64,000 nucleotides of DNA, from contig JAPETS010000011.1 of the NCBI GenBank assembly GCA_026023565.1, positions 310,001-374,000 on the forward strand, read 5' to 3'. This DNA comes from Cirrosporium novae-zelandiae. Its lineage: Eukaryota. The translations under genes were made by a program, and so were the position numbers. This document shows positions 196 through 36,898 of the stretch, in pieces (within the stretch, counting starts at the first letter, position 1; every line of letters begins with the position of its first letter). The notes beneath the pieces are model-generated. The model saw only the letters and a program-made list of their open reading frames with translations. It was not told the DNA's origin and ran no database searches.

Positions 196-5156
<4,961 letters not shown>

Positions 5157-32100: not shown

Positions 32101-34573
32101 CGAATAGCATCCCGACTTTATCGCCGCGGAAGTTCAGGGACCACGAAATAGTCAGCTTGAATGGAGTTGTCCCCAGGAACACAGCCAGGGATCTTCAGCC
32201 TCTTCCGCGTGAGGCTCCAATTTTCTTTTGGAAGGAGATGGCGTAGATCTGTGGCTTGACCCAGCTGTTATCAAGATTTAAGGTCATTCAGAACTTAACC
32301 TCAGGCACAATGATTGAGGATAGCCTATAGCCTAGCACTCCTAGTAAACATGTCTTCTTCTGATGTTAGACTATTGGACTAGATACTGCTTCTCCCATCG
32401 GCCTCTCCGAATTTCAAATCATATCCATCAGCTGATCTGAAGAAGATCAGTCAGAAAGAAGGTGCGCCACTTCCCGGAAGTAAAAAGAATTGATTATTTT
32501 ATACTGACTCAGTAAATGAATGACATGGTTTAAAAGCGCCGAACTGGTATTTTCTAAGTGCCGACAACTTTGATCAGCTTGTTAAAGAAGTCTGAATAGC
32601 TACGGGAAGAGACTAAGAGACTACAATATTTTGTTGAGAAGGGACCCAAGGTACTGCTAACAAACCATATTCGGAAATCTCAAATAAGCAATGTCAACTA
32701 TCAATCAACAGGGAAACCATCCCCAATAAGATAAGTTGTAACCCCAGATGATCGGCTCATAAGCCGAGTATGTGCCACAACTGTAATTCAGGCTTCGGAT
32801 CTTGAGACTACCGAGTGTGGCGTGTGGCTTGCTCATGGGATGGTTTCCTCTATCAAGGAAATGGGGGGATGCCCTAGTTACTGTAGTAGTTTAGTAGGCA
32901 GCTGAATAGCCACGAGTCTTTTGTAACAAAGAGTCAAAAAGCAACGGTCAACGCAACACCAGGTGAGGCGCAGCTGTCAAAAGAACGGTTGGGAGTGGCT
33001 GTTTGTGTCCCATGGACCATGATTTCTGGGTTCTTGGTATAACTTTTTTCGGTTGTTGCAGATAAAATAGTTGATTGCTAAGTTGAAGTTGGTGTGAAGA
33101 ATGCCAGCAAAGCATCGCTTGGGAGCCGAGTTAAGAGTTCAAAAGTCTTAGAGTCTAAAAATGGCATACTTAGTGTAGACCCTAGTTAAGGGAAAAAAGA
33201 TTCGTGGGGGAGTTCTAGGTAGATCTGGCCCTGATTGATGCATGGTTCTAGTGTTAAAAAACTCTTTTTTGGCTGGTTACGTTGAAAAAAAAACGAAAAA
33301 AAAACAAGCTTGGTTGTGTGTGGGTACTGTAATTTTTTTCTTCGGTAGGGTTGTAGAATGGGAGAGTAGACAAAAGTGAAAGTGGAAGGGGGGGGGGGGG
33401 AAACCGGAAGTAGACGGGAGATGCATGGAAGAAAAAATCGAAGGTTTGGAAGCTGTATCTATACCGAATTAGGAAGGAATATTCATATTCAAAGGACCAT
33501 TATCTCTATTTTCTAGCCATATCCAATAATATCCAGTTGCATTCCCTCAATTGAGTGTCATTGTGCGTGGGCCAAAGCCCCAAGAAGGTCAAGTCATGTC
33601 CAATTTAGGTCTAGTTCAATAGTAACAATACAAGGACAACGAAAGGGCCAGTACAAGCTCAGTGTAGAAGCCAATGCAAGCCTAATGCAAGCCCATTGCA
33701 GGCCTGCGTTAAAGCCCTGCATAACTAGGCGCAACCATTGATTGGCTGTGGGTCTCACAGGGCTTTTGTGGATGGATGGACAAGACACTTCCTGGATACT
33801 TCGATATGTCATGAACTACGTCATCTTTTTTGTCCAGGACCAGGAAAACTTGATAAAGCTTTCCAACAAAGAAATAATAATAAAGACACTTGCCCTGCGA
33901 GAATTGCCATCGTCATGATTCACTCTGACTATTATTACCCATTCCGATCACACATCCAAATTTTCTTCATTTGCTGACTTGAAGAACAACAACCATTACC
34001 AACAACCAACAACAAACGAAAGAACAAGCATTCCGTCACCCTACAATCATATGTCGGTCGGATCATTCCACCACCTTCCAGAAGTATCAACAAAAAAAGC
34101 CTCCTAGGTATTACCTCGAACGTACCGCACGTAATAAATCTGTATTATTAGTTCGGTCGTTCCAAGGATCATTCTTCAACATTACTCAGTTTTCATCCAA
34201 ATCCAAGGCAGTCATTCAGTCATTTACTTTACTTTTACTCGCACGACTCGGAATCCTAGGCCGAAGTCCGAAGATTTTACCGACACTTTCTAGGGCAACA
34301 ACAAAGTTTGGGTGGTTGACATATATTCTATCCCGGCGAGTACCTTTGACCACCATAAATCGATCGACTCCCGGGTATTTGAATCGAGCATTTGCCACAC
34401 TGCTCGCTTTCACTCATCTTCTAACCCTTCAACCAAACAAAAGCCAACAAACCAAACAAAAAGGTCCTTTTCATTAAAGTCAAATCAAAATCCCATTTCA
34501 AATAGGTCAGCCCGTATTGCCTTGTCTAGCGCATAGACCCGGCGACTCGGATTCCCACTTCTCCCTGACATCC

Positions 34574-36898
34574 ATGCTTTTAGCGCAAAGCTACCAACGG
34601 CATCAACGTCAGCATTATCAACCCTATCAACCCTATCTACTTCCTTCAGATCTCTTGAATAATAGTCTTCCTCAACATCTGCCCAACTCATATCTAAACA
34701 CTACATCATCGTCATCCTCCCCATATTTCCACTCAACGACACCTTTTACAACCTTAAACAACAACCTTCCCAACCTCGAAATACCATCAAGAATCTACAA
34801 CCTACCCGACGACACTCTTCCTCCATTCCAGGCACCAGCATCTACCGACATCTTCGGGTTAAACCCATCGACACTGGAGTATCCTGACATTCAGGTCCAG
34901 CAACATTCACCTCCCTCCTCCGTTCCCTTAGAACATACCCCTTCTTCGTCGTCGACGGCATCGTCCATGATCGCAGAGGGAAACAGCTCCCTTCCCGCGG
35001 CTTCTTGGGATCAAGACATCTCTGGTCCTTTTCTGGGAAGTCCAGTGCGGTTTCGAGGTCAAATTGTTGGACATTTCCAAAAGCCTCGCAGAATCGTGCA
35101 GGGACATAACAGAACGTCCTCTGGTTCATCGGTGGCATCGGCAGGACCGGCGTCACCACTGGATCACACGACGGTCTATCCTCAAATAGCTGACGCCGAC
35201 AACTCTTCATCCAACTTTTATCTCGGGTCAGATCCCTATACTGATCAACCGCCTATTCATTTCCCAAAACCGCTTCCAACTCCGACGCATACGCCTGTTC
35301 AGTCGCTTCTGGCCCAGCCCTTCCAGGACTATGACCAACAGGATGAGCACTCAGTCTTGGCAGTCAAAAATGCAATGAGACAGGCTGGATTTGTACAGCA
35401 GCACGATCACATGGCCGAACAAAATGAGTCACCTGCCTTTACGGCTTCGACTGCCCAATCGGTTTCCAGTCGCGGCATCGACTCGCCCGCCACCCCGCAA
35501 ACCAACGATGGTGACAATACCGAGGCTTATCGGGTGCAAAGCAGCCATGGTGAGAATAATCCTTTTGACATCGATGCATGGATAGATGAATACTTACGCT
35601 CTGATGTGTATATAGAAATAAGACCAAATGTTCCAAGATTTGATCGCACCATGTCGGATGTGTACCAGGATGAACTCTTTAATCCCGCGACCACGTCTGC
35701 GCCCCAGCAACCCACCAAGCCAACTGTCAATATTACACATGCCTCGAATATGAGTAGCCGTACCCTCCTCTCGCCATATCAAAATGTCATTAGCGAGCGA
35801 CTTCGGGATGCAAGGAAAGGTCATGACCGGTCGCACTCTCCTGCTGATCTGCAACCACGAGAGCGCTCGCCATTCCAACCTAGTTCACCGTTTGCGCCAG
35901 CTTCGCCGATGAGGTTACCGTCTGCTGCCCAGCAAAGAGAGCAGCGAAAGACTGAGGCAGCTAATGAAGCATTTATGAATTCGTCGACCGTAGAGGAAAA
36001 CGCACCAAAAACCATTTCTCCCAAAGATGCACTTCTTGAATACCAAGAGCCGGAAGATGGTAGTCGTATGCCGTTATTTCCGCAACCGACACAAGAGGCG
36101 AATTACAACATGAATTTTCACTCGCATAACGGGATCGTTAATCGGGCGGTGGGGGTGAACATGCGAAGCCCGCATCCGCAAGGTTATGGTGCCATGCCCG
36201 GCGACACTCGGCAAAACTCCGAATACCAACCTGCATCGCTTCCTGAACATCAACCTTTCACCTTTGTACCTTCAACGATGTCTCATCAGCCCTCGATGCC
36301 ACAACAAACTCAATATCCTTTCCTCAGTCAAACGAGGCAATATAGTCAGAGTTCTGATCAAACTCAAACACCCGATTTTCCAACCCACCTTACGTCGATG
36401 GAAACGAGTGTTAGCAGCGACAGCGGCCATCACAACTTTGACACGACATCACATCAAGCTCAACCTCCATTTCGTCGTCCCTCCGACACGTCCGCCGACA
36501 CCGGTACGTACACTTGCACCTACCAAAATTGTACCCTGCGCTTCGAAACACCTGCCAAACTTCAAAAGCATAAACGCGAGGGTCATCGTCAATCACATCC
36601 TCCTGGGTCATCATCAAATCCCAACGTTCTTGCTCGGAACTCTCAAGCCGGACCACACAAGTGTGAACGCATCAACCCTACAACAGGCAAACCATGCAAC
36701 ACTCAGTTTAGTCGCCCATATGATCTTACGCGACATGAGGACACAATACACAATGCAAAAAAACAAAAAGTACGATGTCATCTATGCACAGAAGAGAAAA
36801 CATTTTCGAGAAATGATGCGTTGACAAGACATATGAGGGTTGTGCATCCTGATGTTGACTGGCCTGGAAAATCAAGGAGAGGAAGAAGAGAAGAATAA
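34574..36898 (+). CDS. RPN4: Rpn4-like C2H2 zinc-finger transcription factor (proteasome/stress regulator family)
   Basis: First in-frame ATG at 34574. Three C-terminal fingers, including HKCERINPTTGKPCNTQFSRPYDLTRHEDTIH and CHLCTEEKTFSRNDALTRHMRVVH, matching the Rpn4 FSRPYDLTRH / KTFSRxDALTRH signature. Possible in-frame intron 35550-35615. Confidence 0.85.
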   Translation: MLLAQSYQRHQRQHYQPYQPYLLPSDLLNNSLPQHLPNSYLNTTSSSSSPYFHSTTPFTTLNNNLPNLEIPSRIYNLPDDTLPPFQAPASTDIFGLNPSTLEYPDIQVQQHSPPSSVPLEHTPSSSSTASSMIAEGNSSLPAASWDQDISGPFLGSPVRFRGQIVGHFQKPRRIVQGHNRTSSGSSVASAGPASPLDHTTVYPQIADADNSSSNFYLGSDPYTDQPPIHFPKPLPTPTHTPVQSLLAQPFQDYDQQDEHSVLAVKNAMRQAGFVQQHDHMAEQNESPAFTASTAQSVSSRGIDSPATPQTNDGDNTEAYRVQSSHGENNPFDIDAWIDEYLRSDVYIEIRPNVPRFDRTMSDVYQDELFNPATTSAPQQPTKPTVNITHASNMSSRTLLSPYQNVISERLRDARKGHDRSHSPADLQPRERSPFQPSSPFAPASPMRLPSAAQQREQRKTEAANEAFMNSSTVEENAPKTISPKDALLEYQEPEDGSRMPLFPQPTQEANYNMNFHSHNGIVNRAVGVNMRSPHPQGYGAMPGDTRQNSEYQPASLPEHQPFTFVPSTMSHQPSMPQQTQYPFLSQTRQYSQSSDQTQTPDFPTHLTSMETSVSSDSGHHNFDTTSHQAQPPFRRPSDTSADTGTYTCTYQNCTLRFETPAKLQKHKREGHRQSHPPGSSSNPNVLARNSQAGPHKCERINPTTGKPCNTQFSRPYDLTRHEDTIHNAKKQKVRCHLCTEEKTFSRNDALTRHMRVVHPDVDWPGKSRRGRREE

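Follow-up and report, generated by a model that had tools for sequence, protein, structure and literature searches.

A putative exitron in an Rpn4-like zinc-finger gene of Cirrosporium novae-zelandiae: an in-frame intron that appears to have been kept translatable

Introduction

Functional, deeply conserved alternative splicing is rare in fungi, where the retention of introns is mostly viewed as noise or as a path towards decay of the mRNA. The PTC7 intron is reportedly in frame and translated. Here we describe a 66-nucleotide (nt) segment that is probably an exitron in a putative Rpn4-like C2H2 transcription factor gene of Cirrosporium novae-zelandiae. The gene lies in a 64,000-nt stretch of contig JAPETS010000011.1 (GenBank assembly GCA_026023565.1, positions 310,001 to 374,000 of the forward strand), hereinafter the window, to which all coordinates given without a contig identifier refer.

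Several described systems are close to this locus. The exitrons of Arabidopsis and human (Marquez et al. 2015, PMC4484396) share with the segment a GT-AG intron inside an annotated coding exon of an otherwise intronless open reading frame (ORF), a stop-free length that is a multiple of three, an internally deleted protein product, location in a disordered region with a short motif, and loss in some relatives. Unlike these exitrons, the segment is fungal, has been conserved at a single site in several Pezizomycotina classes and shows signs of purifying selection on the encoded peptide. Budding yeasts similarly diversify proteins by splicing (Hurtig et al. 2020, PMC7491326; see also PMC4227748), with introns for which the retained and the spliced form are both considered to encode functional isoforms, and that have been conserved for long and lost in some lineages; compared with PTC7 and the other budding yeast cases, however, the gene, the clade and the motif are different. 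A yeast transcription factor for which isoforms are produced from unspliced and spliced mRNA is Gcr1 (Gcr1U and Gcr1S), with activation properties that differ between the intron-retaining and the spliced message (PMC7826247). Unlike the gene in the window, Gcr1 is an unrelated factor the intron of which is located near the 5' end.

The N-terminal acidic domain of yeast Rpn4 binds Ubr2, and the RPN4 gene of yeast is, to our knowledge, intronless. Like the window protein, Rpn4 of Saccharomyces cerevisiae is a C2H2 factor with a long disordered N-terminal part. It has a very short half-life, with two degrons, one dependent on Rad6/Ubr2 and the other independent of ubiquitin (Marshall and Vierstra 2019, PMC6568242); control is post-translational, in contrast to what we propose for the gene in the window. 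Our survey of the literature on fungal exitrons, on Rpn4 intron retention and on Rpn4 in filamentous fungi and Aspergillus found no description of the segment. It is unusual for the depth of its conservation in fungi and for the legibility of its dual coding.

An in-frame segment with the signals of an intron

The segment at 35550-35615 is best explained, with a probability that we put at roughly 0.7, as an old spliceosomal intron in which translatability has been preserved (phase 1, length divisible by three, no stop), i.e., as an exitron that can yield two proteins. The comparative evidence appears to support this explanation well, and we are about equally confident that the exitron operates in C. 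novae-zelandiae too. An initial annotation, made from the sequence of the window, had claimed a real intron that is simultaneously in-frame coding sequence, and this structure is supported by contigs of relatives that resemble complementary DNA (cDNA) and lack the segment, by conserved GT and AG boundaries and lengths divisible by three, by purifying selection on the peptide, and by contigs that break at the splice junction.

The GTGAGA donor at 35550, the CTGAT pentamer at 35601 and the TAG acceptor ending at 35615 that had been noted initially are all in place, and the 66-nt length, divisible by three and free of in-frame stops, holds as well (Table 1). Given its location within a coding exon, its GT and AG boundaries and a branch-like site, the segment seems to have the structure by which exitrons are defined. 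It interrupts a Gly codon behind the first base (G|GT GAG), which makes it phase 1, and encodes GENNPFDIDAWIDEYLRSDVYI (residues 326-347) when retained. An unspliced message would give a protein of 774 amino acids (aa) with this 22-residue acidic, W/F/Y/L-rich motif. A spliced message would give 752 aa without the motif and with the junction codon unchanged: removal joins G to AA, which restores the same Glu codon, and the protein reads ...SSH-EIRPNVPRFDRT... (junction ...SSH-EIRPNVP...). An entry in the public protein collection (P0001) is identical to the unspliced 774-aa translation; thus, the public model treats 35550-35615 as coding.

The segment lies between the conserved blocks SPATPQT and VPKLDRTxSDIYQDELYNP. 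Among its 22 residues, 6 are D or E, 1 is R, 4 are aromatic and 6 aliphatic. The initial description of an acidic, W/F/Y/L-rich cluster within a disordered region agrees, by composition alone, with a scan of 22-aa windows under a crude score (W/F/Y/L plus D/E minus K/R), in which the top window of the whole protein (score 11) begins at residue 327; the window that coincides exactly with the segment has a score of 10 and ranks sixth of 753. The G+C content of the segment is 36%, compared to 49% for the ORF; none of the other copies among 14 distinct ones measured is as AT-rich as that of the window (40-52% G+C in the others).

Conservation of the segment among relatives

A search of protein sequences with residues 200-500 retrieved 240 proteins (E <= 0.001), and the 120 best matches were aligned. 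Among the 118 of these that are informative, 109 keep the segment, with a length of 19-27 codons, and 9 lack it. The edges of the segment are constrained in the retaining proteins: the first residue is Gly in 103, Arg in 1 and Cys in 5 (where the alignment places the Cys one column to the left), all of which have NGT codons, and the fourth NGT residue, Ser (AGT), is found in one metagenome copy; Glu or Lys occupies the second position, with a single Met (GAG, AAG, ATG); the segment ends in S, P, T, A, L, I or V, residues with NYA codons, in 107 of the 109; and the residue that follows the segment is D, E, G or V, with codons starting with G, in every case. The edge residues appear to obey the rule that a phase-1 GT...AG intron imposes. 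The public models are inconsistent at this site, which matters for annotation: apart from the 9 models that drop the segment, among them P0120 (RPN4 of Fulvia fulva), two models that both bear the name Paecilomyces variotii disagree, differing by exactly the segment (kept in P0020, missing in P0092).

According to taxonomy look-ups, the named sources include Geoglossomycetes, Coniocybomycetes, Lichinomycetes and an unplaced leotiomyceta genus; other source genera belong to what we take to be Eurotiomycetes and Dothideomycetes. The initial annotation had called for a check of whether the peptide is conserved among orthologs, and this is the case in part: an acidic and aromatic core, D-x-W-x-[DN]-[EQD], is kept in most classes, whereas in the Capnodiales-like and Lichinomycetes sequences it is degenerate.

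For a comparison at the DNA level, metagenome contigs were scanned with an alignment, which yielded 535 confirmed relatives; the best 80 of the 535 were kept, and for each locus, the longest frame holding the zinc fingers was taken, aligned and classed. The site is covered in 59 of the 80 loci, with the segment retained in 18 and missing in 41; among the remaining 21, 5 begin exactly at the 3' edge of the segment and 16 stop short of the site. The frame is broken at the site in none of the 80 loci, and every frame that stops short of it starts at a contig edge, so that copies with a stop or with a length not divisible by three are not hidden by this procedure.

Counting the one in the window, there are 15 distinct retained DNA copies, with lengths of 51, 54, 54, 60, 63 (three copies) and 66 nt (eight copies). 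The joint conservation of splice signals and lengths divisible by three, for which the initial annotation had called for a check, is seen across these copies: all are located at the same codon, with a GTRAGR donor and a YAG acceptor, and a stop or a length not divisible by three is found in 0 of the 15, the frame having been kept across at least four length changes. The donor is GTGAGA in 12 copies and GTGAGG, GTAAGA and GTAAGG in one each.

The acceptor is CAG in 14 copies, and TAG in the window copy alone. This difference bears on the alternative that the segment is never spliced in C. novae-zelandiae and is plain coding sequence there, its signals being vestiges of an exitron that works in other lineages. 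The window protein is only 36-46% identical to its aligned relatives, and canonical intron patterns are few in the window (4 matches to GTRAGT..CTRAC..YAG vs 2.1 expected), both of which would suit this alternative. However, despite the deep divergence, the donor GTGAGA is intact, as are TACTTAC, in which Leu has the rare codon TTA, the AG that comes first behind it, the phase and the length divisible by three, whereas unused signals would be expected to drift at synonymous sites; we regard this alternative as unlikely.

TACTTAC, which resembles the yeast branch consensus UACUAAC, is found in 13 of the 15 copies, 11-19 nt before the 3' end; TATTTAC and TACTTAT occur as variants. Y-L is read in this place in 10 distinct copies, always with TTA for Leu; in the Pleosporales-like copies, TACTTAC is read in another frame (ACT TAC, Thr-Tyr). 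The conservation of the heptamer in two different frames suggests selection at the nucleotide level, and it most likely represents the branch region. The initial annotation had correctly located CTGAT and had taken it for the branch-like site. It is not a conserved signal: inspected by eye, most of the relatives' copies lack a canonical CTRAY between TACTTAC and the acceptor, and we rejected CTGAT as a conserved branch site for this reason, although it may be used in C. novae-zelandiae itself. In the Y-L frame, the T of CTTAC avoids an in-frame stop (TAC TAA C or TAC TGA C), an idea to which we give little weight, given that the Pleosporales-like copies keep ACT TAC where ACT AAC or ACT GAC would be allowed. 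We also considered a hairpin that would mask the 5' splice site, TACTTAC being complementary to the GTRAG donor; it was dropped because RNAalifold predicted no conserved structure in 14 copies (no pairs, energy 0).

Removal and loss of the segment

Three contigs of 2.7-3.3 kb (L033, L043, L046) are 98.0-100% identical over the aligned blocks to the contig L039 and lack two pieces of it that are bounded by GT and AG: one of 81 nt (GTACGT...CTGAC...AAG) and one of 63 nt, at the site homologous to the segment (AAT G|GTGAGA...TACTTAC...CCAG|AC). In a second lineage, five contigs (L030, L034, L041, L074, L058) lack exactly 66 nt of L028 and L065, at 92-97% identity, and all fall within L028 3238-6663, around the L028 reading frame. 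With two precise GT-AG deletions in nearly identical sequence and confinement to one transcription unit, such short contigs can be read as spliced cDNA. Taken together, the cDNA-like contigs from which precisely the segment is missing show 92-99.6% identity to the genomic contigs that contain it. A hand sort gave 24 short contigs that lack the segment in lineages whose genomic relatives keep it.

Genuine loss seems to have occurred as well. The segment is missing from the long contigs L004 (78.8 kb) and L044 (399.5 kb) and from L045 and L060, where the flanking codons are joined just as they would be after splicing, which suggests a precise loss of the intron. It is likewise missing from L066 and L078, with 1-3 residues left at the site in the alignment. 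Because of these genomic losses, short contigs from the respective lineages were not counted as evidence of splicing. A reverse-transcription artefact (compare PMC8240250) was considered and is unlikely, given that the junction shares a single G, that the GT-AG boundaries are conserved in genomes and that some genomes show precise loss.

Two peculiarities of these contigs are recorded here. The first 1 kb of the cDNA-like contig L030 (1-1007) does not align to its genomic relative L028 and may reflect a chimeric assembly or a diverged 5' region. In both the genomic L065 and the cDNA-like L058, which belong to one lineage, the five codons DRTLS of the conserved VPKFDRTLSD block are missing just after the exitron, a genuine in-frame deletion rather than splicing.

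Indirect evidence for use of the retained form

Four Pleosporales-like sequences (L039, L054, L069, L075) share an 11-codon core, DSWLFNQFCTY, in which 5 codons vary, all at the third position and all synonymously. The rate of nonsynonymous substitutions (dN) in the core is 0, with synonymous rates (dS) of 0.52-2.62 (one pair was not computable); for 17 codons of the exitron, dN is 0-0.23 vs dS of 0.37-0.97; and for the conserved flanking blocks, dN is 0.008-0.027 with dS of 1.05-2.62. The initial impression that the peptide looks selected as protein is reinforced in this lineage, in which the retained peptide appears to be under purifying selection at the protein level; the lower dS of the exitron would fit an additional constraint at the RNA level. 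The D-x-W-x-[DN]-[EQD] core, for its part, is not explained by the splice signals.

Assembly breakpoints provide another line of evidence. Five contigs with three identifier prefixes (L019, L035, L040, L053, L063), out of the 21 without sequence upstream of the site, have as their first base precisely the G of the 3' junction that is common to both forms. Because a de Bruijn assembler ends a contig where two abundant paths converge, these five starts can be taken as the signature of an assembly fork, and they indirectly suggest that both isoforms are present together. Furthermore, L070 retains the segment and shares its identifier prefix with the spliced L041, and L054, L069, L013 and L073 retain it and share a prefix with the spliced L049 and L057. 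L069 lacks the upstream 81-nt intron and keeps the exitron; it may be a partly spliced mRNA.

These observations bear on another alternative, namely, that the segment is an ordinary constitutive intron missed by gene callers, in which case it would always be removed, no peptide would be produced from it and the 774-aa model would be wrong. The 24 short cDNA-like contigs would be expected under this explanation, several lineages do without the segment entirely, and the splice signals account for part of the conservation of the peptide. A constitutive intron would hardly remain free of stops and frameshifts in all 80 loci and all 15 copies through the length changes, would not explain zero dN in the core combined with nearly saturated dS, and fits poorly with the five contigs that break at the junction and with retaining and spliced short contigs that share identifier prefixes. 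We consider it quite unlikely.

Points against the exitron reading

Several points weigh against the reading of the segment as an exitron. Within the window, splice-like patterns are at the level of chance: GTGAGA-N40-70-YAG occurs 22 times vs 25.6 +/- 5.7 in shuffles, i.e., not above the chance expectation, and GTRAGN..CTRAY..YAG occurs 19 times vs 21.9 +/- 5.6 in Markov-1 simulations. Counts from the window neither support nor refute the exitron, so that the case rests on the relatives. Such counts are also what a chance pseudo-intron would give, that is, a random GT...AG pair with a branch-like pentamer in an AT-rich coding stretch; this is extremely improbable, considering that 15 distinct DNA copies, as well as 109 proteins from several classes, share these boundaries at one and the same codon, and that the segment is removed in cDNA-like contigs of relatives.

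The remaining points concern the evidence from the relatives. The cDNA nature of the short contigs is deduced from the GT-AG deletions and the confinement to a transcription unit, and splicing in C. novae-zelandiae itself from homology. The presence of the retained form in mature, translated mRNA is suggested by indirect lines of evidence; the test for selection covered 4-5 related sequences and 11-17 codons, and the genome from which L069 derives might itself lack the 81-nt intron. Part of the conservation of the peptide reflects RNA signals (GE at the donor, YL at TACTTAC, the last residue and the Asp/Glu at the acceptor). The D-x-W core is degenerate in the two groups mentioned above, and the peptide is dispensable in those several lineages from which the segment has been lost.

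A second intron in Pleosporales-like relatives

The 81-nt piece of L039 (L039:3732-3812) is a second in-frame, stop-free intron, which is spliced in Pleosporales-like relatives: the stretch is retained in L039, L075 and L032 and missing in L033, L043, L046, L049, L056, L057, L071 and L069. The homologous sequence is ordinary coding sequence in the window (YPQIADADNSS..., residues about 203-229) and in the L028 lineage, where the cDNA-like contigs keep it. Apparently, coding sequence has turned into an intron in a lineage-specific manner. The public models differ here too, with the stretch kept in P0076 and dropped in P0105 and P0117. L072 lacks only part of the stretch that is removed in L033, L043 and L046 (it reads ...SYH-ADEPTRAF...), which may reflect another splice site or an ordinary deletion.

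The gene and its putative relationship to Rpn4

The zinc-finger region of the encoded protein is nearly invariant among 35 aligned orthologues. Many of the best 120 of the 240 matches have names such as 'C2H2 transcription factor (Rpn4), putative' and 'Transcriptional regulator RPN4'; a protein from A. flavus is 32.8% identical to yeast Rpn4 (PMC13417813). Based on these source names and on two publications (PMC526180, PMC13417813), we treat the gene as a putative orthologue of RPN4.

Rpn4 sites have been noted upstream of euascomycete RPN4 orthologues (Gasch et al. 2004, PMC526180). In the window, a PACE-like core, TGTGGCAAA, which does not have the PACE form, (A/G)GTGGC, is located at 34390-34398 on the minus strand, 176 nt upstream of the ATG. 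This is a single occurrence, and the counts of PACE-like motifs in the window are at the chance level; an autoregulatory PACE-like site was rejected on these grounds. In L039, GGTGGCAAG is found at about 3222-3230, some 30 nt upstream of the ATG.

Table 1. Features of the putative Rpn4-like gene and of the 66-nt segment
Feature	Positions	Strand	Remarks
Putative Rpn4-like C2H2 transcription factor gene	34574..36898	+	Single ORF of 774 codons plus TAA stop (P0001)
Putative exitron, 66-nt phase-1 intron, length divisible by three, stop-free	35550..35615	+	Homologous segment at the same codon in relatives; cDNA-like contigs without it
5' splice site GTGAGA (Gly GGT and Glu GAG)	35550..35555	+	Same hexamer in 12 of 15 distinct copies
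Codons for D-A-W-I-D-E, acidic/aromatic core D-x-W-x-[DN]-[EQD]	35573..35590	+	Conserved as protein in most classes
TACTTAC, likely branch-point region	35591..35597	+	Branch A at 35596, 19 nt before the 3' end; read as Tyr-Leu in the window
CTGAT, fits CTRAY	35601..35605	+	11 nt before the end; branch-like site of the initial annotation
3' splice site TAG	35613..35615	+	First AG after TACTTAC; final G opens the following codon, GAA
C-terminal C2H2 zinc-finger region, three finger-like units	36503..36853	+	PF00096, E 7.5e-08, 3 stretches

Proposed mechanism and implications

The splice signals of the exitron are conserved yet non-optimal: the donor is GTRAGA where GTRAGT would be optimal (A at position +6), and the branch region has CTTAC in place of CTRAC (T where R is usual), a combination typical of introns that are only partly removed. 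We propose that, with such a donor and branch region, removal of the segment would be partial and possibly dependent on conditions, and we infer that both mature mRNAs are translated. Acidic motifs in the disordered N-terminal part of the protein could serve as an activation domain and as a ligase-binding site; by analogy with yeast Rpn4 and judging from its composition, the motif encoded by the segment may function as a transactivation signal, a degradation signal or both, the dose of which would be set by splicing. In a more far-reaching and tentative version of this proposal, which we hold to be possible rather than probable, the exitron is older than the split of Eurotiomycetes, Dothideomycetes, Geoglossomycetes, Coniocybomycetes and Lichinomycetes, and is a dose switch controlled by splicing through deliberately weak signals. 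Removal would then be sensitive to temperature, proteotoxic stress or spliceosome load, and would delete the main acidic activation/degron motif.

The feedback switch in the proteasome regulator that the initial annotation had suggested calls for caution, as a link between the Rpn4-like factor and the proteasome in euascomycetes is doubtful. Gasch et al. (2004, PMC526180) concluded that the Rpn4 orthologues of euascomycetes are unlikely to control the genes of the proteasome: Rpn4p of N. crassa binds PACE-like sites in vitro, and the proteasome genes of euascomycetes mostly lack such sites. The same authors proposed a different set of targets and possible autoregulation (PMC526180).

Should the dose switch be real, the potency and stability of Rpn4-like factors would be set at the RNA level in filamentous ascomycetes, in contrast to budding yeast, where proteolysis is the only such means. 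Under the exitron reading as such, one site in a transcription factor related to stress has remained open to splicing as well as to translation in several classes of fungi, which would make it a clean natural case of dual coding at the RNA and protein levels. If the motif is indeed an activation or degradation signal, alleles locked in one or the other isoform would provide a direct handle on the control of Rpn4-like factors in filamentous fungi.

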